Below, one piece after another: positions 5,103 through 57,673 of a stretch of DNA of 64,000 bases (positions within the stretch are counted from its first letter, which is position 1; each line of letters starts with the position of its first letter). Source of the DNA: Octopus vulgaris (taxonomy: Eukaryota); NCBI GenBank assembly GCA_951406725.2, contig OX597831.1:33542001-33606000 (forward strand), in the 5' to 3' direction. The position numbers and the translations under genes were made by a program. The notes under the pieces were generated by a model. It did no database searches. It was not told the origin of the DNA and saw only the letters and a list, made by a program, of their open reading frames with translations.

Positions 5103-7800
5103 AGAAGAGAAACAAGTTTTACAAGCAAAATAAGTTGTTCACATCCAATGCCAAAAAATTCTATAGAGAAATAGGGAAGGAGAAAGTAACCGTTAAAGAC
5201 CCCCTCCCATGGAAGAAGTTCAAAACTTTTGGAAAAGGATTTGGAGTGACAAGAAGACGTACAACATAAATGCAGACTGGATTATACAAACTGAAGGATC
5301 CTACCAAAATTTACAACAACAAGCATGGGAAGACATCACAATAGCAGACCTAAGAAAGGCACTCACGAAGGCCCATAATTGGAAATCCCCCGGTAAAGAT
5401 AGGGTGCCGAATTTCTGGCTCGCATCGCTCCCATGCGCACACGGTAAGCTAGTTCAGCTGCTTAATGGAATTATGAGAGACCCAAAGAAAACACCTGAAT
5501 GGTTAGCAAGTGGCATTACTTACCTACTCCCAAAGAATAACGAAACCAACCTTCCAAAAAACTATCGGCCTATAACCTGTCTATCAACCACGTATAAAAT
5601 CCTAACATCTATCCTGGCGGAGAAAACATATGCATTCATGGAGAAGAACGATATTTTCCCCATTGAACAAAAAGGGTGCCGCCGAGGCTCTTACGGATGC
5701 AAAGATCAACTGCTAATCAATCGTATGATCCTTGAGAACTGTCACAACAAGCGCAGAAATCTCAGCACCGCATGGATTGATTATAAAAAGGCCTTCGACA
5801 GTATACCGCATCCATGGATCTTGAGATCGCTGGACATCTTCAAAATTTCCCCTGTGATTTCAAACTTCCTGAAGCACAATATGTCGTTGTGGAATACGAA
5901 TCTCCAATTATACCACTCTAATGGAGTACTTGCCTCAGAAAATATAAACATCAACTGTGGAATTTTTCAAGGTGACTCACTTTCACCTTTAATATTCTGC
6001 ATAGCCCTAATACCCCTTACAAGTGAATTAAACAGAACAGGGTATGGGTATAAAATTGCCAATAAAAAAATAAGCCATCTATTTTATATGGATGACTTAA
6101 AACTTTATGGTAAAAACAATAATGAACTTGAAGGCCTATTGCGCACCGTGAAAGCATTCAGCGATGACATCGGGATGGAGTTTGGACTTGAGAAGTGTGC
6201 CAAGGCCACTTTCCAGAAAGGGAAAGTGAAGACCACAAATTCAGTCGTGTTAGATGTTGACACAGTCATAAGAGAGCTTGAGCAAGAACAAACATACAAA
6301 TATTTAGGGATAAATGAAGGCTCTGGTATTCAGCATGCAAGCATGAAAGAGAAGATCAGGAAGGAATGTTATAGGAGAGTTCGTGCAGTCCTGAAATCTG
6401 AACTAAATGCACGTAACAAGGTGTTAGCTATAAATTCCTTAGCAGTTCCAGTTGTTACTTATGGCTACAATGTGTTGAACTGGAATATGAGTGAAGTAAA
6501 GAATATAGATAGAAAAATACGCAAGCTGCTGAGTTGTAATAGGATGCACCACCCAAAGGCAGACGTAGATCGCCTTTACCTTCCCAGAGCCCAAGGAGGT
6601 CGAGGCCTGATCCAATTTGAACTAGCTTACAAAACAACCACAATTGGACTGGCCAAATATCTCGAAATATCGAATGACTGGATGCTAAAGCTCGTGGAAA
6701 ATCACGAGAGACGAAAGAAGCTTCATTCTATCATAAAGGAAAGCAGAAAATTTGCTATTGATCTCGTGCAGGATACCCAAACTGAACAACCCGAGGGAAG
6801 TACGGCAACTATTGTTGCAAAGAAGGTGAAAATGATGGCAATGAAGAAAGCGCACGAGCAATTGGCTGATAGGTGGGAGGAGAAACCTCTGCACGGCAAA
6901 TATGTGACCCGCAGCAAACAAGCTGATGTTGACCAGAAGCAAACCCATCAGTGGCTGCGGAGCTCAGGGCTAAAAGCAGAGAGCGAAGGTTTCATCCTGG
7001 CTGCTCAAGATCAAAGCCTATTAACCCGGAACTACCAGGCCAATGTGATGAAAAATGGAGCAGACCCAAAATGCCGATTCTGCAACGACATGATTGAAAC
7101 AGTGGACCACCTAATCTCTGGATGTAAAGTCTTAGCACCAGTGGAGTATAAATTAAGACATGACAGAGTTGGCCAATATCTCCACTGGCTAATAAGTCGG
7201 CATTACAATATCAAAACTGCCGACAAGTGGTATAATCACCACCCTGAGGCTGTAACTGAAGGAGAAAATGTAACCATTCTGTGGGACTTTCCAGTACATA
7301 CAGACCGAACCATCAAGGCCAATAAACCAGATATTGTTGTGAAAGACCAAAACAATAAAGTTTGCTTATTGATCGACATGAGCATCCCCTGTGATCATAA
7401 TATCTCAGCGAAAGAGTTTGACAAGCTCAGAAAATATAAAGACCTACTCATTGAAATTGAGAAAATGTGGCATCTCAAGGCGGTTACAATACCAGTGATC
7501 GTAGGAGCACTAGGAATGATCAAGAAGGGAACCGAAAATTATATGAGAATGATCCCTGGCTTACCATCCCTGCAAGAAGTGCAAAAGATTGTCTTAACTG
7601 GTACATCACACGTATTGAGAAGAGCATTGTCGATGTGAAAATTGTTGCTGCTCATGTATGTTAATTTAACTTAAAAAAAAAAAAAAAATGAACGAACTAT
7701 TGTGTAATGGCCTACCGATGTATACTATGAGTTTCTTTGCCCTAGGAGTCGGGAAGACACTCGGCAAGAAATGGAAGCAAATTTGAAAGAAGAAAAAAAG
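5103..7800 (+). mobile_element. R4/Dong-clade non-LTR retrotransposon, 5'-truncated, inserted in (TAA)n
   Basis: Starts mid-ORF (KRNKFYKQNKLFTSNAKKFYREIG), apparent 1-nt frameshift near 5200-5208, then intact ORF, about 160-bp 3' UTR, flanked by (TAA)n on both sides; Dong elements are known TAA-repeat targeters. Confidence 0.92.
5209..7638 (+). CDS. Reverse transcriptase + CCHC zinc knuckle + restriction-like endonuclease (R4/Dong ORF, N-terminally truncated)
   Basis: 809 aa uninterrupted: WKSPGKD, NYRPITCL, EQKGC, WIDYKKAFDS, GIFQGDSLSPL, YMDD, CRFC..ETVDHLISGC, RHD, KPDIVV..IDMSIP, K..KY. Confidence 0.93.
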   Translation: MEEVQNFWKRIWSDKKTYNINADWIIQTEGSYQNLQQQAWEDITIADLRKALTKAHNWKSPGKDRVPNFWLASLPCAHGKLVQLLNGIMRDPKKTPEWLASGITYLLPKNNETNLPKNYRPITCLSTTYKILTSILAEKTYAFMEKNDIFPIEQKGCRRGSYGCKDQLLINRMILENCHNKRRNLSTAWIDYKKAFDSIPHPWILRSLDIFKISPVISNFLKHNMSLWNTNLQLYHSNGVLASENININCGIFQGDSLSPLIFCIALIPLTSELNRTGYGYKIANKKISHLFYMDDLKLYGKNNNELEGLLRTVKAFSDDIGMEFGLEKCAKATFQKGKVKTTNSVVLDVDTVIRELEQEQTYKYLGINEGSGIQHASMKEKIRKECYRRVRAVLKSELNARNKVLAINSLAVPVVTYGYNVLNWNMSEVKNIDRKIRKLLSCNRMHHPKADVDRLYLPRAQGGRGLIQFELAYKTTTIGLAKYLEISNDWMLKLVENHERRKKLHSIIKESRKFAIDLVQDTQTEQPEGSTATIVAKKVKMMAMKKAHEQLADRWEEKPLHGKYVTRSKQADVDQKQTHQWLRSSGLKAESEGFILAAQDQSLLTRNYQANVMKNGADPKCRFCNDMIETVDHLISGCKVLAPVEYKLRHDRVGQYLHWLISRHYNIKTADKWYNHHPEAVTEGENVTILWDFPVHTDRTIKANKPDIVVKDQNNKVCLLIDMSIPCDHNISAKEFDKLRKYKDLLIEIEKMWHLKAVTIPVIVGALGMIKKGTENYMRMIPGLPSLQEVQKIVLTGTSHVLRRALSM

Positions 7801-12911: not shown

Positions 12912-13546
12912 GTATATATATGTGTGTGTGTGTGTGACTTTGTATTTCTGTCTGTCCCACTGAACCGATCGGTAAGCAGTCTCGGTGTGTTTACGTTTCC
13001 ATAACATAGCGGTTCGGCGAATAGATTCGATAGAATAAGTACGACACTTTAGAAAAATAAGCAGTCCGTTCCAAGATTAAACCGAGCTTCTAGGGACACA
13101 CATTTGCATCTGTTTGGAATGAAACAATGTGAAAGGATGTACCACTGCAGCCTCTGGTTTTAGGAATCGAACTCAACGCTCTCACGGATCAGGATCCTGC
13201 TTAAGCCGAATCAGCAGAGAATGCACTTTCCAGAACGCTTTTTACTGGAACGGTATAAGGTGATTTATTTAGCGCAAGCTTACAGATTGCAGTTTTTATC
13301 GGTTGTATGTCTCTGGAGAGGAGGTGAGGAAGATTTAAGACCTATTACTTCTGATACTTCTATTGACAAGACATGGAGCTATAAAGATCATCATCATCAT
13401 CATCATCCTCATCCTCATCATCATCATCATCATCATCATCGACAAGAACAAGAACAAAAACAACAAATATATAACTAAAACATACATAAATACATACTCA
13501 TATACATACATGTATACGTACATGCACATATATACATGCTTAGATT

Positions 13547-13607
<61 letters not shown>

Positions 13608-13732
13608 GTATATGTGTGTGTGTACATACACACACACATTTGAATATTGTGTACGCATGAGAGTGAATATATATAAGGCTTCTTAGAGAAACCTAGCTCA
13701 TTCAACTTCACTCGAGTATATATCTATATCTA

Positions 13733-13845
<113 letters not shown>

Positions 13846-13883
13846 GTCTGTATGTCTATTTATCTATCTATATATACACATAC

Positions 13884-13918
<35 letters not shown>

Positions 13919-13932
13919 TGTATGTATGTATG

Positions 13933-13982
<50 letters not shown>

Positions 13983-14265
13983 CAACAATTGAGGGTAAAA
14001 TTAATTAATTATTAATTAATTTCACCAAGTGTTCAGTATGCAAAGGGACCATTTAAGGCGAATTCAAATTATTACAATATATAAAAGGGCTTAGTAAAAT
14101 AAATTACTTTGCCGCATACTGAACTCATTAGAAATAGCAGCTAAAAAACTTTTTTAAAAACCATTTCTAATACTTAAAGAAAATCTCTCTCGTATAGTGT
14201 TTGGTCAACTCAACTCACGAAAGTTTGGGGGTAAAGACATAAAAAAATCAAATGCAAAGGTTATT

Positions 14266-14317
14266 TGAGAACGTACGTTTCAAGATTAGTCATCAAGACA
14301 CTTCTATCATCAGCTCA
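14266..14317 (-). ncRNA. Hammerhead ribozyme motif in 561-bp unit, copy 1 (copy 2 at 14827-14878)
   Basis: Reverse complement of TGAG CTGATGA T AGAAGTGTC TTGAT GACTAATCT T GAAAC GTAC GTT CTCA. Confidence 0.65.
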
Positions 14318-15145
14318 GAAACTCCATGGTTTGGATTTGAAAACACTGAAAGTGAGAGCATACTCTCTCGGCCTCTCATCTCCTTCGAAGATCTGCTCGT
14401 AACTAACAGTGCCAACAAACTCAAACATGCAAGCGAAGAATTTCTGTCCTCCCCTTTCCACCAGCGTGGGTTAAAATCAACAAACACTCTGCTTATTTCG
14501 GTAAAATCCGAAGCATTAATTAGAGGGAGATTAATTATAATTTCAACAATTGAGGGTAAAATTAATTAATTATTAATTAATTTCACCAAGTGTTCAGTAT
14601 GCAAAGGGACCATTTAAGGCGAATTCAAATTATTACAATATATAAAAGGGCTTAGTAAAATAAATTACTTTGCCGCATACTGAACTCATTAGAAATAGCA
14701 GCTAAAAAACTTTTTTAAAAACCATTTCTAATACTTAAAGAAAATCTCTCTCGTATAGTGTTTGGTCAACTCAACTCACGAAAGTTTGGGGGTAAAGACA
14801 TAAAAAAATCAAATGCAAAGGTTATTTGAGAACGTACGTTTCAAGATTAGTCATCAAGACACTTCTATCATCAGCTCAGAAACTCCATGGTTTGGATTTG
14901 AAATTATAATTAATTGTTGAAATTATAATTAATCTCCCTCTAATTAATGCTTCGGATTTTACCGAAATAAGCAGAGTGTTTGTTGATTTTAACCCACGCT
15001 GGTGGAAAGGGGAGGACAGAAATTCTTCGCTTGCATGTTTGAGTTTGTTGGCACTGTTAGTTACGAGCAGATCTTCGAAGGAGATGAGAGGCCGAGAGAG
15101 TATGCTCTCACTTTCAGTGTTTTCAAATCCAAACCATGGAGTTTC

Positions 15146-15197
15146 TGAGCTGATGATAGAAGTGTCTTGATGACTAATCTTGAAACGTACGTTCTCA
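15146..15197 (+). ncRNA. Hammerhead ribozyme motif in 561-bp unit, copy 3 (copy 4 at 15707-15758)
   Basis: Stem I TGAG/CTCA, core CTGATGA, imperfect stem II (AGA..GTC/GAC..TCT), GAAAC, palindromic stem III AACGTACGTT, predicted GUU cleavage triplet. Confidence 0.65.
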
Positions 15198-15940
15198 AAT
15201 AACCTTTGCATTTGATTTTTTTATGTCTTTACCCCCAAACTTTCGTGAGTTGAGTTGACCAAACACTATACGAGAGAGATTTTCTTTAAGTATTAGAAAT
15301 GGTTTTTAAAAAAGTTTTTTAGCTGCTATTTCTAATGAGTTCAGTATGCGGCAAAGTAATTTATTTTACTAAGCCCTTTTATATATTGTAATAATTTGAA
15401 TTCGCCTTAAATGGTCCCTTTGCATACTGAACACTTGGTGAAATTAATTAATAATTAATTAATTTTACCCTCAATTGTTGAAATTATAATTAATCTCCCT
15501 CTAATTAATGCTTCGGATTTTACCGAAATAAGCAGAGTGTTTGTTGATTTTAACCCACGCTGGTGGAAAGGGGAGGACAGAAATTCTTCGCTTGCATGTT
15601 TGAGTTTGTTGGCACTGTTAGTTACGAGCAGATCTTCGAAGGAGATGAGAGGCCGAGAGAGTATGCTCTCACTTTCAGTGTTTTCAAATCCAAACCATGG
15701 AGTTTCTGAGCTGATGATAGAAGTGTCTTGATGACTAATCTTGAAACGTACGTTCTCAAATAACCTTTGCATTTGATTTTTTTATGTCTTTACCCCCAAA
15801 CTTTCGTGAGTTGAGTTGACCAAACACTATACGAGAGAGATTTTCTTTAAGTATTAGAAATGGTTTTTAAAAAAGTTTTTTAGCTGCTATTTCTAATGAG
15901 TTCAGTATGCGGCAAAGTAATTTATTTTACTAAGCCTTTT

Positions 15941-15970
<30 letters not shown>

Positions 15971-15971
<1 letters not shown>

Positions 15972-16350
15972 ATTATAACTATAATTAAAGGTTTAGCTAC
16001 AAGTTGCTTCACCACATACGGAAAATTTAGAAATAGCAGCCAAAAGACAGCTTTCATTATTTTCATTATCACTTTCATTATTTTTTTCTTCTTTTTGCCT
16101 ATGTAAGTTGCAAATATTGTTGTCTGTGGAGTCATATTTTGTAGTGAAAAGAATTAGCTGTCTTTTGACTGCTATATCTAAATTTTCGGTATGTGGTGAA
16201 GCAACTTGTTGCTAAACCCTTAATTATTGTTATAATTATTTATAAAAAAACTTTTTGAACAAGTTTTTACCGATAATGGTCTTTTCCATACCGAAACTAC
16301 TCGGTAAAATTTATTAATTATTAAATTAATAATTCTTTACCCTATATCTG
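15971..16350. mobile_element. Fold-back element (about 80-bp inverted repeats) with an adjacent hammerhead-like variant
   Basis: 15971-16051 pairs with 16157-16236; TTTTA CCGATAA T GGT..ACC GAAAC TA CTC GGTAAAA at 16265-16310. Confidence 0.6.
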
Positions 16351-16383
16351 TAATGATTATATATATGTATATATACATATATA

Positions 16384-16443
<60 letters not shown>

Positions 16444-16804
16444 TATGTATGTATATGTATGTATGTATGTATATATAAATATATGTATATGTATGTATGC
16501 ATAAATAAATATATATATATATGTACGTGTGTGTATATATGTATATATCCGAGTTTGTATGATTGTATATAAGCGAAGAAATTCTAGTTTTTGTCTGAGC
16601 TTCACGTTTTAATGCTTACACTTTTCACAATATTACAATATTGAAATAAACTAGTACTTTCACACGTTACGCAATCATCCGTTTTATGTAGTGACTGTCG
16701 CGTTCCTCAATTGACAACGATGTCATATACATACATACAAACATACAAACATACATGCATGAATACATACATCACATACATACATACATGCATACGTACA
16801 TACA

Positions 16805-16859
<55 letters not shown>

Positions 16860-16865
<6 letters not shown>

Positions 16866-17860
16866 GAGTTCAGTTCAGGGACAGTATTTCTTGACCTACT
16901 TTGCTGGCTTGGAGACTGGAAGTCTGCAATGTAAAGTTATTGTCCTTTGTTCTGTCGGATTCACGAAAGAGTGATGGCTTTTGGAAAGACCCCCCCCCTT
17001 TTGTCGGTCAAGGAAGGGTCAAGGAAACTACCTTATAAAAAAGGAAGAGCTGTGAGTCTGTAGATCAGTTCAGCTGGAGAAATTGAGGTGGTAACAAGGG
17101 AGATGCGTTTACGAAGGAAGCGCAGAGAAAGACAGACACACAATCATGAGAGATGACAGGCGAGATAGTGACAGTGACAGCGTAGAGGAGGACAGACAGA
17201 TAGTATTACAGGACTAGGGAGAGAGTGACAGTGACAGCGTCGAGAAAGACAGACAGATGGGATTAAGGAGCATAGAGAAGGACTACGGTGTGAGGCATTG
17301 GCTGTTGTACGGTATGTGTTGATTATTGAGTTGTGTTGAAATGTAAATGAGTTGATGTGCTGGATAAAGGGATTATAACGAACATTGTGAATTGTGTTGA
17401 TATGTGAATTATGTAAAGAGATTATAACGAACTGTTACAGAATTGCGGAAAGCAAGAACAAAGAACTGTGTTTGATTGTTGTATTGATATTGAAATGCTA
17501 AAGAAATGAGATTGTAAAGACTTTGAAGGACTTTGAACTGTAGCGTGTATTGTTGTTTTGATTTGATCTGAACTTATTTGTTTGATTCGACGTGTACTGT
17601 TTAAATGCTGTTGTTTTATTGTATCTGCATGTTTAAATGCTTTGATCTGTTGTATACCTGTTGTTTTCTTTAAATGTATTTGATGTTGTAATGATTGTCA
17701 TAAACTGTGTTTAAATGTAGCCAATTGCCTTCCGTCTCTCTCTCTGTGTCTCTTCCTGCTGTTTGTTGTTGTTATCTCCGGTCGCCGACTTCGCTGCCAT
17801 CCCCACCGAGTCCTCTCTGTGTGGCGAATTCTCCGTTCGACTGGGTTAAGGGTGGTCCGT

Positions 17861-17929: not shown

Positions 17930-18084
17930 AGTAGGTGAATGAATTATCCTATGTTTATCGTCAGCATGGAAAATTCGTTTAACCGAAACCTGGGTAGCAA
18001 ATTCACGTCAGAAACACGGTTGAAGCGACCTGTCAAGGGTAGAAACTCCGGGTTCATGTGTAGAAATTTGTGTGTTGTATATGA

Positions 18085-18227
18085 ATAAATGAAAGAATGG
18101 AGTCGAACGAAGATGTTAACAAAGTTCCCTTTATTCCTTTCGAATGAAAACATGCTGTCTTCGAAACATGTGTCGAGAGTAAAGGAATTTTGTTAACATC
18201 TTCGTTCGACTCCATTCTTTCATTTAT
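18085..18227. repeat. 39-bp perfect inverted repeat enclosing a decayed hammerhead-like loop
   Basis: 18085-18123 is the exact reverse complement of 18189-18227; loop contains ...cga atgaaaa ... tc GAAAC ATGT GTC gag. Confidence 0.75.
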
Positions 18228-18233
18228 ATATAT

Positions 18234-18265
<32 letters not shown>

Positions 18266-18289: not shown

Positions 18290-19050
18290 ATGCATACCTA
18301 TAGCAAAAAGGATTTGTACTATAGTTTCTAACACAAGAACCAGGGACACACGACTACATGAACTAAAAGACGAACTCATTACCAGGAACTACCCGCCATC
18401 ACTAATTGACATATGCTTTCAACGTGCCCCTCAACTCAACATACACGAACATAGGCATCCCAAATTAAAGAAGGATTTACAACCATACATCTTTGCACAC
18501 AACCCTTTTAATAATGAAGCCTTTGACATCATCCTCCAGAACTTTCCCCTACTAAAAAGCGACCACAGAATGAATTTAATCCCCCAAACGCACACCATTA
18601 TAAAGAGCAAAGCCCGAATACGCTCGACAACAACACTGAAGCTGTCAGTAAAAATATGCAGAAGACCTAACTATATGTTGGACATGCGTCAACTTAATTG
18701 AGGGATCAAAGTTCTCTTTCAAACAGTGTCAACGTTTTACAGTGAACAGCAACTTCACATGTGTTTCGGAGAACCTGATATATGTATTAACTTGTTCTGG
18801 GTGTCAAGAGCAATACATAGGCCAAACCCAAAACAGTCTATGTCAAAGGATGGCTCTACATAGATCCCAGATAAAATTTCGGAAATACAGAAAAATAGCA
18901 TTCAGCGAACATATCGACATTTGCGCCTAAAACAAACAACCCAGTTTCAGAATTTTGCTCCTCTATCAATTCAGGGACGATGCAACCTGTAGTCACCGCA
19001 TTAGTAAAGAGTCATACTTTATCACAAAATATAAACCCCGTTTGAATGTG
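18290..19050 (+). pseudogene. Penelope-like element: RT C-terminus, Cys linker and GIY-YIG endonuclease, 5'-truncated and frameshifted
   Basis: AKRICTIVSN..RLHELKDELITRNYPPSLID (PLE RT thumb); FTCVSENLIYVLTCSGCQEQYIGQTQNSLCQRMALHRSQI (GIY-YIG); KESYFITKYKPRLN end. Confidence 0.88.
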
Positions 19051-19359
19051 TCCACCACAAATGACACTACTACAAGGGCCTTAGAATAATACCCACGCAA
19101 ATATTAAAATCGATATATTCAGGACAGTCACTACCCATGAATTTATTCAGAACAATTCTAATCACTACTATTACAACAACAGGTCACTTTTAGGTCACTA
19201 GACCATTTAAGAGGATTCCACCAACAACCTACAACTGTCATACCACTCCCACATTCTTCTTCTTCTTCTTCTTCTTCTTCTTCTTCTTCTTCTTCTTCTT
19301 CTTCTTCTTCTTCTTCTTCTTCTTCTTCTTCTTCACCGTCTCCTTTCTCAGCTATATAC

Positions 19360-33295: not shown

Positions 33296-33873
33296 CTTTT
33301 CTACTCAAGGCACAAGACCCGAAATTTTTGAGGAGGGGGGAGTCGATTAGATTGGCTCCATTACGCAACTGGTACTTAATTTATCGACCCCGAAAGGATG
33401 AAAGGCGAAGTCAACCTTGGCGGAATTTGAACTCAGAACGTAACGGCAGACGAAATACCTATTTCTTTACTACCCACAAGGGGCTAAACACAGAGAGGAC
33501 AAAGACAGACAAACGGATTAAGTCAATTATATCGACCTCAGTGCGAAACTGGTACTTATTTAATCGACCCTGAAAGGATGAAAGGGGAAGTCGACCTTGG
33601 CGGAATTTGAACTCAAAACGTAACGGCAGACGAAATACCTATTTCTTTACTACCTACAAAGAGCTAAACACAGAGAGGACAAACAAGGACAGACAAACGG
33701 ATTAAGTCGATTATATCCACCCCAGTGCGTTACTGGCACTTATTTAATCGACCCCGAAAGGATGAAAGGCAAAGTCGACCTCGGCGGAATTTGAACTCAG
33801 AACGTAGCTGTAGACAAAATACCGCTAAACATTTCGCCCGGCGTGCTAACGTTTCTGCCAGCTCCCCGCCTTC
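33296..33873 (-). mobile_element. SINE family B trimeric composite inserted into a family A remnant
   Basis: Three about 180-bp core repeats; TSD tgagtgaatatt at 33284-33295 and 33877-33888. Confidence 0.85.
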
Positions 33874-39859: not shown

Positions 39860-41362
39860 CAGGGTGGTGCAAAATTTTGGACCCTTAGGCAATTTACCGT
39901 TTACAATAAGTGTTCGAACTGATACCCGCCTTTTTCGAAACAGTTTCTCACTCGGGAGACACATGATCTTTGCACATTTCTGAGCATAGTGTTATTCCCT
40001 CTTATGATTTCAATTTCTTGTGTGATGTTATCTTTTAGTACTTGTAATGTTCTTGGTGTGTTAGCATAAAACACTGATTTAAGATGTCCCCACCAGAAAA
40101 ATTCTAAAGTACTCAAATCCAAAGATCTTGGTGACCATTAAACCGGTTCTCGACGTCCAATCCATTTTCTTGGGAATATATTGTCCAAAAAACTGCGCAC
40201 ATCTTTCGTATAGTGTAGCAGAGCCCCATCCTGTTGAAACCACATATCTCTTAGAATTGCTAATGGTACGTTCTCTAGTCAAAGTATAAGGAATGTTTTT
40301 AATAAATGAAGGTATGAATCACCTGTTACCGTGTTTGTGAAGAAATGAGGACCAATTATCGTACATCCCCATATAGCCACCCACACTACAATCTTTGGAC
40401 AGTATTGGACGTGCACATCCTCAGAACACCGAAGATTTTCTGCCGACCAGTACCGTGAACTATGTCTGTTAACCGTACCGTTTATGTAAAATATTGCTTC
40501 GTCACTGAATGAAACATGCTCTTCCATCTGTGTTTGTTCTACAAACTTCTGACAATACTCTACACGACGGTCCATGACATCTCCATGCAACTCATATACT
40601 AATTTTATTTTATTTATTTATTTATTTGTCTTTCAGATCGGTAGCCATGGCAGAAAAACTAACAATTTTAGAAATAATAGAACCTGGATGGCACCAGCTC
40701 GCGTTCAGTCGGAATTTCGTCTATTTTCAAATCATTGGCTCTGATGAGGCTTCTATAAAGGAATTGAATTGTTTATATAACAAAAAAATGTATATAAACT
40801 GGTACTTTATTTATCGACCCCGAGAGGATGAAAGGTAAAGTCGAAATTCCGCCGAGGTCGACTTTACCTTTCATCCTCTCGGGTTCAATAAATAAAGTAC
40901 TAGTTTCGCACTGGGTCGATGTAATCGACTTAATCTCTTTGTCTGTCCTTGTTTGTCCCCTCTATGTTTAGCCCCTTGTGGGTAGTAAAGAAATATATAT
41001 GCATGAAGATGATTGCGAGACAAAATGCGGCCAGTGGAACGCTTAGATACACCCGTTTCTTGTGAAACTTTTCTTAATGATTTTCGTGGGCTTCCTTCCA
41101 AATGTCTGCATACCCGTGCAGATGTTTCACAATTAGTTGCAGTTCTTCGTCTTCCAATGCAGTGCCGGTGGTGGACACTTCAGGTTTCTCTAAAACGAAT
41201 AAAAGATTGCTGGCAGTTCTTTGTGTAACTGGTTGTCTATTCTGGTGTTTAGCACTAAACATATCAGCGACTGAGCGACTGAACGCGAGCTGGTGCCATC
41301 CAGGTTCTACTATTTCTAAAATTGTTAGCTTTTCTGCCATGGCTACCGATCTGAAAGACAAA

Positions 41363-42441: not shown

Positions 42442-42517
<76 letters not shown>

Positions 42518-42521
<4 letters not shown>

Positions 42522-42777
42522 AAGTATATTTGCCATCTAAATATGGCTAACCATCGGTGATTGTCGTGCGCTGATGACAGGTAAATACTCAGAAACCCGG
42601 GTCCGTGCATATCACGTCAGGTCGACGATGGGAAGGATAGTTTCCCTTTGTAAGTACCGATAGGGCACAGAAAGTGTGTCAATAGCAAGCTGGAGAAGAT
42701 GTTCTCTTGGGGCTACAAGCTACAGTAGCATCCACCCTTAGTTTTTAGCAATATTTAGATGGCAAATATACTTCACA
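42518..42777 (+). mobile_element. 260-bp non-coding element with 33-bp TIRs and an internal hammerhead
   Basis: TIRs 42518-42550 / 42745-42777 (1 mismatch); interior similar to the Penelope 3' region at 19554-19695. Confidence 0.8.
42566..42608 (+). ncRNA. Minimal type-I hammerhead ribozyme motif
   Basis: GTGCG CTGATGA CAGGT AAAT ACTCA GAAAC CCGG GTC CGTGC: intact core, 5-bp stem I with 2 GU pairs, palindromic stem III, GUC site; stem II eroded. Confidence 0.72.
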
Positions 42778-43256
42778 TTATCGTGCAGCTACTGTCTATA
42801 CCTCGTTCAGAGATTTATTATATATATATATTTAGACACATACATATATTTGGACATATACACACATATTTTATTTGTGGGTAAACAAGGCAACCAATAG
42901 TTTCATATTAAGAGATCTTCACAATTGTTCAGCCGTGCCATATCGAAGTGTTGATGCTCTTGTGGTTGTTGACGTCATGTTCTCCCTCTCCATCTCTCTC
43001 CCTCTCTCTCACCTTATCTCTCCCCCTCTCTCTCCCTCTCTTTCCCCCCTCTCTCTCTATATATATAGTGAGAATTTACAAAAACAAAAGAAGAAGAGTG
43101 TGTAAACAACAAACAGATGTATTAGTTTTACACTGGGAAAGTGAGAAAGTCTTTTACGCTTTGAACCTACGCTCTTCGACAGAAAGGAACACAGAAATAA
43201 ACAGGGGGAGGAAATAGAAAAAGGTATAGCGGCTAGCGATATACACACACACACAT

Positions 43257-55289: not shown

Positions 55290-57673
55290 GTTTATGGAAA
55301 AGTGCTTGAATGAAAGAACTTGCAGGAGACCGTTTGCAAAATTGAAGATGAATATCGAGCAGGATGTCCAGTTATATCAGAGAAGCTTTGTATACCACAT
55401 CAATAGATACTTTCGGCATGAGAGAAAGGCAAAACCCAGATTTTGTTCAGTGCTGGGCTCTCAGAGCTGGAAAAAGTTATCGAAACAAAGCGTGCAGCTC
55501 TGATGTAATACAAGAGTGATTCTTCTATAAAGTCACTCGAAGAATTCAGAAAGGCAAGAAATAAAACCCAACTGACTGCCAGACGCTGTGCAAGTAGGCA
55601 TTGGCAGGAAATCTTACAGAGTATCAAGTCAGCTGCTGACAGTGGCGAAACCCGTGGGATGCATGCCGGTTTGAAGAAGGCCGTCGGTCCATCCGCAACC
55701 AAGTCAGCCCCTCTGAAATCAACTACTGGGGATCTCATCAAGGACCAAAGCATGCAAATGGATAGATGGGTGCAGTACTACCAGGATCTCTACTCACGAG
55801 AGACCACGGTAGCTGAAGCTGCAATCGAGGGTGTCAAGATCTTGCCAGTCATGTGTGAACTTGACAGTCTGCCATCTATAGCAGAGCTCACCAAGGCTAT
55901 TGACTCCCTAGCAAGTAACAAGGCTCCGGCAAAAGAAGGCATCTCATTAGAGATCATCAAAACCGGCAAAAATACCATCCTGCTTCGGCACATTCATGAG
56001 CTTCTTTGTCAGTGCTGGAAAGAGGGTACAGTCCCTCAGGATATGCGGGATGCTAACATCATTACGCTTTACAAAAACAAAGGTGACCGTGGTGATTGTA
56101 ACAATTACCGTGGAATATCTCTTCTAAGCACTGTTGGAAAGGCCTCTGCTCGTATTATCCTGTCCAGGCTGCAACTGCTTGCTTCTCGAATTTATCTAGA
56201 ATCACAGTGTGGCTTTAGAAGAAGCAGATCAACTATTGGCATGATATTCTCCATACGCCAACTTCATGAGAGGTCCAGAGAGCAGAAAATGTCATTATAT
56301 ATGGCCTTAAATGATCTGACAAAGGTCTTTGACTTGGTAAGTAGAAAAGGCCTCTTTATCCTGCTCCAAAAAATCGGGTGTCCACCAAAGCTGCTGAGGA
56401 TCATCACATCTTTCCATGATGATATGCAAGGCACCAAACAGCACAATGGTTCAACATCAACCGCCTTCAAATAAAAAATGGGGTAAAGCAAGGTTGTGTC
56501 CTTGCTCCTACTTTATTTGGCATCTTCTCGCTGCTGCTGTCACATGCCTTTGTGACATCAGATGATGGAGTGCTTCTGCACAGTAGAAGCGAAGGGAAAC
56601 TGTTCAATCTTTCGCGTCTGCGTGCCAAGACCAAAATCAGAGGCGTCCTGATCAAGGAGATGCTATTTTCTGATGATGCCGCTCTGGTATCACACACAGA
56701 AGCCCTAGAAAGGCTCGTCAACTGTTTTGAGCAAGAATGTGGCAACTTTGGCTTATTTATCAGCCTCAAGAAGACCAACATCATGGGTCAGGCTACATCC
56801 ACCATCCCAAACATACATATTGGAGACCACAGAATATAGGAGGTGGATAAGTTTACCTATCTTGGCTCTACCGTCACCTACAACCTATCCCTTGAAACTG
56901 AGCTCAATATACGCATTGGCAAGGCAGCTGCTGTGATGGCCCAACTCTCCAAACGGGCATGGGACAACAATAAGCTGACCAAGACCACAAAAATGAAGAT
57001 TTACCAGGCATATGTACTTAGCACTCTACTGTATGGAAGTGAGACTTGGACACCATACACACGACATACGACGCCATACGTCGCCTAAATATCCTTTACC
57101 CGCGCTGCCTCCAGAAAATCCTTCGCATCAAATGGCAGAATCATGTTCCCCAAAAAGATGTCCTCAAGCAAGCAGGAATACCAAGCATGTTTACACTCCT
57201 CACACAAAGACGTATGAGATGGTTTCGACATGTTAGCCGTATGGAAGATGGCAGAATCCCCAAGGACATACTCAATGGAGAGCTTGCTAGGGGCACTAGG
57301 TCTATGGGAAGACCGTTCTTACGATACAAGGATGTTTCCAAAAGGGACATGAATGCCTGCAACATCAATATTACCAATTGGAGAGCAGTTGCCAGCAACC
57401 GTGGAGATTGGTGACGTAGCGTAAAAGGAGTGACATAGAGAGAGATGAGAAATGGAAAAACAAGAAAAGACGTCCACAAGAAAGTACGACATTACAACCA
57501 GCCATGCAAAGTCTACGCTACATTTGCGGCACCTGCCAGAGGGAGTGTTTGTCCAGGATAGGACTACACAGCCACAGCAGGTGATGTATTAGGACATGAA
57601 ATGTAAAAGCCGGACTAGATTATTTTATGCGCAACTCCATTGTCTCCCGAGACAAAAAGGATGCCAACAACAA
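55290..57673 (+). mobile_element. RTE-clade (BovB-like) LINE, 5'-truncated, with several stops and frameshifts
   Basis: PQDMRDANIITLYKNKGDRGDCNNYRGISLL, ESQCGFR, GVKQGCVLAPTLF, LFSDDAAL, LLYGSETW, RMEDGRIPKDIL, C-terminal C..C..H..H; 3' ccattgtctcccgagacaaaaaggatgcc(aac)n. Confidence 0.92.

Follow-up and report, generated by a model that had tools for sequence, protein, structure and literature searches.

How a 561-bp, hammerhead-bearing sequence came to stand in an octopus genome as near-identical copies in both orientations, and whether it passed through a circular RNA on the way, are the questions raised by this locus. The window analysed, a 64,000-nt stretch from Octopus vulgaris, is microsatellite-rich animal DNA with 182 rows in its tandem-repeat listing; apart from the locus itself, 2.5 tandem copies of a 180-bp SINE-like unit, which recurs through the window, are present at 33367-33823. 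The initial annotation read the locus as a candidate retrozyme or circular-RNA replicon, copied more than once around a 561-nt circle with a strand switch. The answer reached here keeps the recent insertion and the hammerhead-bearing, Penelope-type unit and gives up the replicon. With a probability of roughly 0.75, what inserted here, and recently, is a Penelope-like element (PLE) that is non-coding, non-autonomous and high in copy number and was moved in trans; operationally it would be called a non-LTR retrozyme.

The repeat period is 561 bp, with a G+C content of 193/561 (34%). Unit nucleotides 1-561 are numbered from window positions 14928-15488, and both arms are read in the hammerhead sense. 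The insert consists of 1.66 minus-strand and 1.85 plus-strand copies, placed head-to-head between (TA)n tracts, and the coordinates given here confirm the copy numbers, near-identity and flanks first reported for it. On the left, the target microsatellite (13717-13974) passes from (TATC)n through (TATG)n into (TA)n, the last occupying 13940-13974. The left arm (13975-14903, minus strand, ie read from 14903 to 13975) is 929 nt or 1.66 units long and is made up of a 5'-truncated copy, starting at unit nt 194, and one full unit. Its 3' end at 13975 corresponds to unit nt 561 and abuts the (TA)n. The right arm (14912-15951, plus strand; 1040 nt, 1.85 units) contains 16 nt of unit end, the full unit at 14928-15488, and then unit nt 1 to 448-463; its 3' end abuts a second (TA)n tract (15941-15971), which is common to the insert and to a neighbouring element.

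Both outer ends of the insert are 3' ends joined to (TA)n, and the flanks are non-palindromic. The last 98 nt of the left arm (13975-14072, minus strand) form a 'tail' that is present only at the outer end of that arm, and that would measure up to 113 nt if the right junction were placed at 15936. A target-site duplication is unreadable inside a microsatellite. The central, head-to-head junction (14898-14927) has a 6-nt microhomology (14898-14903) together with a short templated duplication spanning 14898-14911, in agreement with the duplication at a microhomology that had been noted there. Only two substitutions (15937 and 15949) distinguish the copies from each other. Both are located within the last 15 nt of the right arm, which suggests that they belong to the junction and do not reflect age.

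Over its last 200 nt the unit is predicted to fold much more stably than shuffled sequences (z = -6.5). This structured 3' module (15290-15488, plus strand) is predicted to contain a hairpin at 15291-15337, a multiloop, and an A+U-rich terminal hairpin which stops 19 nt short of the unit end. The 11-bp internal inverted repeat picked out earlier is real, and closes the multiloop in the predicted fold. A diverged neighbour (15972-16360, right end approximate, no strand assigned) adjoins the insert on the right via the common (TA)n tract. It is likewise head-to-head, with a short inverted arm (15972-16050) and a direct arm from about 16158 to about 16360, but has no hammerhead match; its segments 15972-16050 and 16158-16236 are 92% alike. 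The direct arm carries a 3' module homologous to that of the unit (nhmmer E = 3.6e-4; folding z = -6.3). The module appears to be conserved between the two with compensatory changes, 4 of 20 predicted consensus pairs being changed on both sides, three of them in well-aligned stems, in a comparison of two sequences only. The neighbour itself seems to be a second repeated fold-back family with the same module. When a covariance model built from unit and neighbour was run on the window, 12 matches were obtained at E<=1, of which 11 fell within 13971-16352 and one had an E of 0.5; no further convincing member was found in the window by this model. Inverted repeats of another kind, 84 bp long, 98% alike and flanked by (TTTA)n/(TAAA)n, are situated at 40628-40711 and 41276-41359 and enclose about 560 bp that include a SINE-like piece.

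In the neighbour, (TA)n follows the inverted arm immediately behind the first inner hairpin, at a site homologous to that used by the insert; the direct arm reaches (TA)n 17-19 nt beyond the terminal hairpin, as the unit does. The one-sided extension that results is about 120 nt in the neighbour and 98-113 nt in the insert. Since both end sites are shared by the insert and its diverged neighbour, the arms appear to finish at preferred 3' ends about 100-120 nt apart. The initial annotation had the arms starting and ending at different permuted points; the outer ends are instead two 3' sites at (TA)n, which the comparison with the neighbour sets apart from random permutation. That both sites are shared suggests two starts of reverse transcription about 100-120 nt apart.

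When the hammerhead core was searched for across the window on both strands, five matches were obtained, four identical ones in the insert and an unrelated one at 42566-42608. Those in the insert lie at 15146-15197 and 15707-15758 on the plus strand (right arm, first and second copies) and at 14827-14878 and 14266-14317 on the minus strand (left arm, copies 1 and 2). All four are in the unit sense, and the monomer has a hammerhead in one polarity only. The description of one type I hammerhead per unit with a self-complementary stem III is borne out by these motifs, which have a 4-bp helix I, an interrupted helix II with a U.U at its base, a palindromic helix III and a GUU triplet. Position 17 is U15193 in the first plus-strand copy, with the cut predicted after 15193, and U15754 in the second. 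Helix III and its flanks make up a perfect 10-nt palindrome (15184-15193). A GUA register was tried and rejected, as helix I fails to form in it. In dinucleotide shuffles of the unit the pattern arose 5 times in 3000, and once in 3000 when a palindromic helix III was included. A search with hammerhead models, put forward earlier as a check, had a divided outcome: the core scan recovers the four motifs, but there was no hammerhead family among the 67 Rfam matches at E<=10 in 13000-17000, most of them noise from microsatellites. The criterion of Li, Clavereau and Pollet (2026, bioRxiv 10.64898/2026.07.22.740005) is a run of two or more tandem units in which every unit has a complete type I hammerhead; each arm here has two. 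The unrelated match belongs to an element of about 260 bp (42517-42780) beside (TA)n(TG)n, which has 33-bp inverted-repeat ends with one mismatch; its type I hammerhead is a different one, with GUC and a palindromic helix III, and its sequence is unrelated to the 561-bp unit.

The motif region folds at -10 kcal/mol into a structure that is not the catalytic fold. In a dimer transcript the helix III palindromes of the two copies are predicted to pair with each other at about 0.99. The resulting duplex extends over A14 and U17, predicted to be paired at about 0.9, and in a 701-nt context the ensemble is 14.7 kcal/mol more stable than the active dimer fold. As a control in short context, the GUC hammerhead elsewhere in the window gave a gap of 8.4, compared with 5.0 for the GUU motif of the unit; with the larger gap on the side of the control, folding energies cannot rank hammerhead activity. 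The 40 variant rows listed, of 62 in the public contigs, place changes within the hammerhead in the helix II/loop II region (15723, 15728, 15731 and insertions at 15727-15731) and none in the core, which hints at constraint on the hammerhead. A GUU triplet can be cleaved, but GUC and GUA are the two fastest (PMC3138052). The hammerhead is probably weak, and any cutting would take place as a dimer or with the help of protein.

Transcription of either strand had been expected to cross two hammerheads 561 nt apart. Two sense motifs are indeed found on each strand, but they would be covered in a transcript that reads through the insert from end to end, which is predicted to form a hairpin of 831 bp with 2 mismatches (14073-14903 with 15121-15951). 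A free pair of hammerheads would be offered only by transcripts starting near the centre of the insert. The 831-bp double-stranded RNA formed by a read-through transcript would be a likely substrate for editing or for the production of small RNAs.

The coding capacity of the unit is slight. Its longest frames are 51-114 aa; none of the three frames tested had a Pfam match, no homologous protein was obtained for either of the two searched (0 of 132 and 0 of 3 candidates scored), and an ORF for a reverse transcriptase and GIY-YIG endonuclease was not found in the unit. No tRNA gene is present in the window, and a sigma-70 promoter scan, with a model not relevant to an animal, was at background (3 against 2.0). 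A decayed and frameshifted Penelope-like ORF fragment (18290-19089, plus strand) is located 2.3 kb from the insert and starts at a (TA)n tract. It retains a thumb/linker, a cysteine motif and a GIY-YIG match (E = 1e-4), and a relative of it carries PF26215; by its domain order and cysteine linker the remnant looks Neptune-like. The 3' flank of the remnant has no similarity to the 561-bp unit, and no sequence link from the unit to an autonomous PLE was found, either in the unit frames or in this flank. We infer that the mobilising partner is a PLE enzyme acting in trans, probably a reverse transcriptase/GIY-YIG endonuclease of the (TA)n-targeting Neptune type. Close by, at 18078-18234, is a short fold-back element beside (TA)n, with, in its loop, a degenerate stretch that resembles a hammerhead and has GUC and a palindromic helix III; the element is possibly the inverted end of another PLE insertion. 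Coding sequence of other kinds also occurs in the window. An uninterrupted 813-codon frame of a non-LTR retrotransposon (5197-7638, plus strand; RVT_1, E = 4e-30) is preceded by a long trinucleotide tract in an upstream frame, and a 321-codon fragment (55509-56474, plus strand) is presumably from an RTE-type non-LTR retrotransposon.

Other copies had been named as a further check, and many are present in public contigs. Of 24 listed runs, 20 contain the unit or part of it; they come from 9 studies and four organism labels, and the diverged contigs run into thousands. None of these runs is recorded as RNA; one (X2) was guessed to be RNA and was counted neither for nor against expression, and contigs cannot show RNA ends, strand or circles. 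Contigs aligned to 15385-16140 numbered 4213, 30, 1152 and 718 in four runs. In the run with 4213 (X1), 3014 were less than 99% alike to the window, over a stretch that takes in part of the neighbour. The window variant is matched with 0 differences by contigs of other runs (X2 records 10 and 16; X3 record 20) and so is part of a subfamily that other samples contain too. That a diverged contig from organism label B bridges the head-to-tail junction (X4 record 26; 52 + 37 nt, 4 differences) makes the tandem join a feature of the family. In some contigs the unit is joined only from helix II on, their 5' part being different, and related families appear to share the 3' half of the hammerhead. The inversion junction of the insert (13975-15951) was not among the contig joints listed; short contigs break at repeats. 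Metagenome contigs contained 0 exact matches to a 23-nt motif, and 14 metagenome loci returned by a looser core pattern were set aside as chance, none having a helix I of at least 4 bp or wider similarity to the unit. As for the neighbour, summed contig depth, which was not taken as copy number, was far greater over its arm (15983-16060) than over its spacer (16061-16086) in three large runs, and several opposite-strand joints were seen in contigs from this arm.

The assignment to PLEs rests on the combination of a partial tandem, an inverted 5'-truncated copy, a one-sided tail, a (TA)n target and a palindromic hammerhead, which, but for the length of the tail, is the published pattern of PLE insertions. 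Craig et al. (2021, PMC8557442) describe partial tandems, in many cases next to an inverted copy truncated at its 5' end, and a tail of 30-40 bp at one end, as well as the targeting of microsatellites and non-autonomous multicopy derivatives; the formation of the tandem and inverted insertions is called open there. PLEs of Adineta have the same layout, head-to-head being the most frequent inverted form (PMC3846280). A type I hammerhead with a short palindromic helix III is given as a feature of PLE repeats (PMC4209133, PMC6765202), and PLE hammerheads are further described as low in activity and as occurring pairwise, close together, on opposite strands (Cervera and de la Pena 2014, PMC4209133). 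For an anole PLE, the protein is reported to cut and extend both strands, favouring DNA that is AT-rich, and two internal starts define the tail (Frangieh et al. 2024, PMC11167929).

In the mechanism we propose, a PLE enzyme would bind the structured 3' module and cut a (TA)n tract on both strands. A cDNA would then be primed by each target end, one at the unit end and the other about 100 nt further in, and the inner start, just behind the first inner hairpin, would leave the tail on one arm. Both cDNAs would run through more than one unit on a template of more than unit length, and microhomology, with a short templated slip, would serve to join their 5'-truncated ends. The layout is better accounted for by two primed cDNAs linked at their 5' ends than by the strand switch around a 561-nt circle that had been invoked. 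As to the template, we lean towards one uncleaved linear multimer of at least 3.5 units, which fits at least as well as a circle and would have kept four hammerheads uncut. The start of the right arm and the site of the left arm's end are 16 nt apart, a spacing expected if both cDNAs were made on one RNA, and such as two enzymes on a linear RNA of this length would produce; the coincidence is suggestive, with a chance of about 6% by our own estimate. In the anole system, the sole in-vitro reconstitution, hammerhead cleavage was unneeded and uncut RNA was the main template (PMC11167929). A 561-nt circle would account for the identical copies no less well and is a possible but rather doubtful template, a circular one having already been proposed for PLEs by Cervera and de la Pena (2014, PMC4209133), and a monomer with re-priming is improbable.

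If the locus came from a true circular-RNA retrozyme, its dimeric hammerheads would release a ligated 561-nt monomer, and rolling-circle reverse transcription would have given the four identical copies. This origin is conceivable, though on the whole unlikely. It would account for four copies that are identical bar the two junction bases while the family is diverged, and for arms that are each longer than one unit; the predicted pairing of helix III between copies is in its favour, and circles are formed by the retrozymes of coral, mussel and axolotl, one of which has a U.U at the base of helix II (PMC7229834). Folded as a circle, the monomer reaches -145.9 kcal/mol (z = -5.1 against 40 shuffles, 65% paired), but much of this signal comes from the 3' module, which the hammerhead-less neighbour has too. 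Neither of the two fastest triplets is present (PMC3138052), and the palindrome covers A14 and U17, with the active dimer fold lying well above the ensemble, an argument that is weak given the GUC control. PLE-type hammerheads are reported to cleave poorly (PMC4209133), and 8 of 9 Xenopus dimers were without cleavage, the ninth being cleaved (Li et al. 2026). A fuller version is less probable again, and would have the locus as an expressed circular retrozyme RNA, with an atypical GUU dimer hammerhead, copied by a PLE enzyme pair from both ends of a cut microsatellite at two fixed starts about 100 nt apart, the module being a portable PLE recognition signal common to hammerhead-less fold-back families. 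If true, this would provide a natural test set for how the tandem and inverted insertions of PLEs, and their tails, are formed.

The geometry of the arms bears on two further explanations. Self-priming has been proposed for the head-to-head structures of bdelloid PLEs (PMC3846280), and an inverted arm made by self-primed fold-back of a single cDNA during insertion would agree with identical arms meeting at a microhomology. A fold-back from the left arm, however, could copy at most 577 nt before reaching the flank, compared with a right arm of 1040 nt, and one from the right arm would yield 831 nt, compared with a left arm of 929 nt. One pass being too short either way, a single fold-back cannot make the arms and an extra template jump would be needed, which leaves this route improbable. 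The same figures speak to the earlier concern that the palindrome is a simple fold-back artefact, which they disfavour. A chimera of sequencing or assembly, or copies made identical by consensus polishing, could be suspected from the near-100% identity, the microsatellite flanks, and an inversion junction that is missing from the contig joints listed. An artefact of this kind is nevertheless very unlikely, as the palindrome goes no further than the element and the two flanks are different, neither arm could template the other in one pass, the diverged neighbour has the same head-to-head layout, and contigs in other runs have 0 differences to the window (X2 records 10 and 16; X3 record 20). The small size, hammerhead and structured RNA would also suit a circular RNA replicon, autonomous and viroid-like, that had entered the genome by reverse transcription. 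We consider this highly improbable: the hammerhead is in one monomer polarity only, the ends are PLE-style, the layout is the standard PLE partial tandem with an inverted 5'-truncated copy (PMC8557442, PMC3846280), the DNA family is large, with thousands of diverged contigs under four organism labels, and the predicted circle is branched, not rod-like.

The preferred reading, a PLE derivative moved in trans, places the insert in a class that is already known, and it is the 561-bp family that may be undescribed. No description of such a family was found in literature searches on octopus or cephalopod Penelope elements, hammerheads or retrozymes. For Octopus vulgaris, 31 PLE families and 336 recently active insertions are reported in a 2026 repeat annotation, in the main text of which the word 'ribozyme' is absent, and the supplement or repeat library of which may hold the family (PMC13282606). 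What the analysis adds is the longer tail and the structured 3' module common to the unit and its diverged neighbour. With a substrate that is young, high-copy and non-coding, and that has two mappable 3' ends and a conserved module, the choice between linear and circular template becomes testable.

Among known systems, viroid-like replicons have ribozymes in both monomer polarities and are without a dispersed DNA counterpart; the unit has one in a single polarity and thousands of contigs in runs presumed to be DNA. In the twin priming of L1, a head-to-head inversion results when a cDNA is primed from each of two target ends, and its junction shows microhomology and a short duplication. The insert differs from it in that its template would be multimeric and its second start is apparently a fixed site in a structured module. 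The Chlamys element MRC1 is a short non-autonomous PLE derivative with pLTRs, insertions of multiple copies head-to-tail, and 3' ends shared with other families, and is alike in being such a derivative; Chlamys elements, however, are green algal, and most are without canonical hammerheads and target (CA)n or (C)n (PMC8557442). With animal non-LTR retrozymes the insert shares a non-coding tandem unit, one type I hammerhead per unit, high copy number, a structured monomer and a G+C content under 50%. The monomers originally described are 150-450 bp (PMC7229834), so that the unit, at 561 bp, is above their range, but it is within the 51-972 bp of the animal retrozymes that Li et al. (2026) argue to be non-autonomous PLEs. 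It differs from them in its PLE-type rather than canonical hammerhead, its GUU triplet and its inverted layout. Closest are the endonuclease-bearing PLEs (Neptune and Penelope/Poseidon), which have the partial tandem with an adjacent inverted, 5'-truncated head-to-head copy (PMC8557442; PMC3846280; PMC11167929), the one-ended tail, the (TA)n or AT-rich target and the type I hammerhead with a short palindromic helix III. Against their tail of 30-40, that of the insert is about 98-113 nt; the insert is without an RT or GIY-YIG ORF, and both of its arms are multimers of a short non-coding unit.
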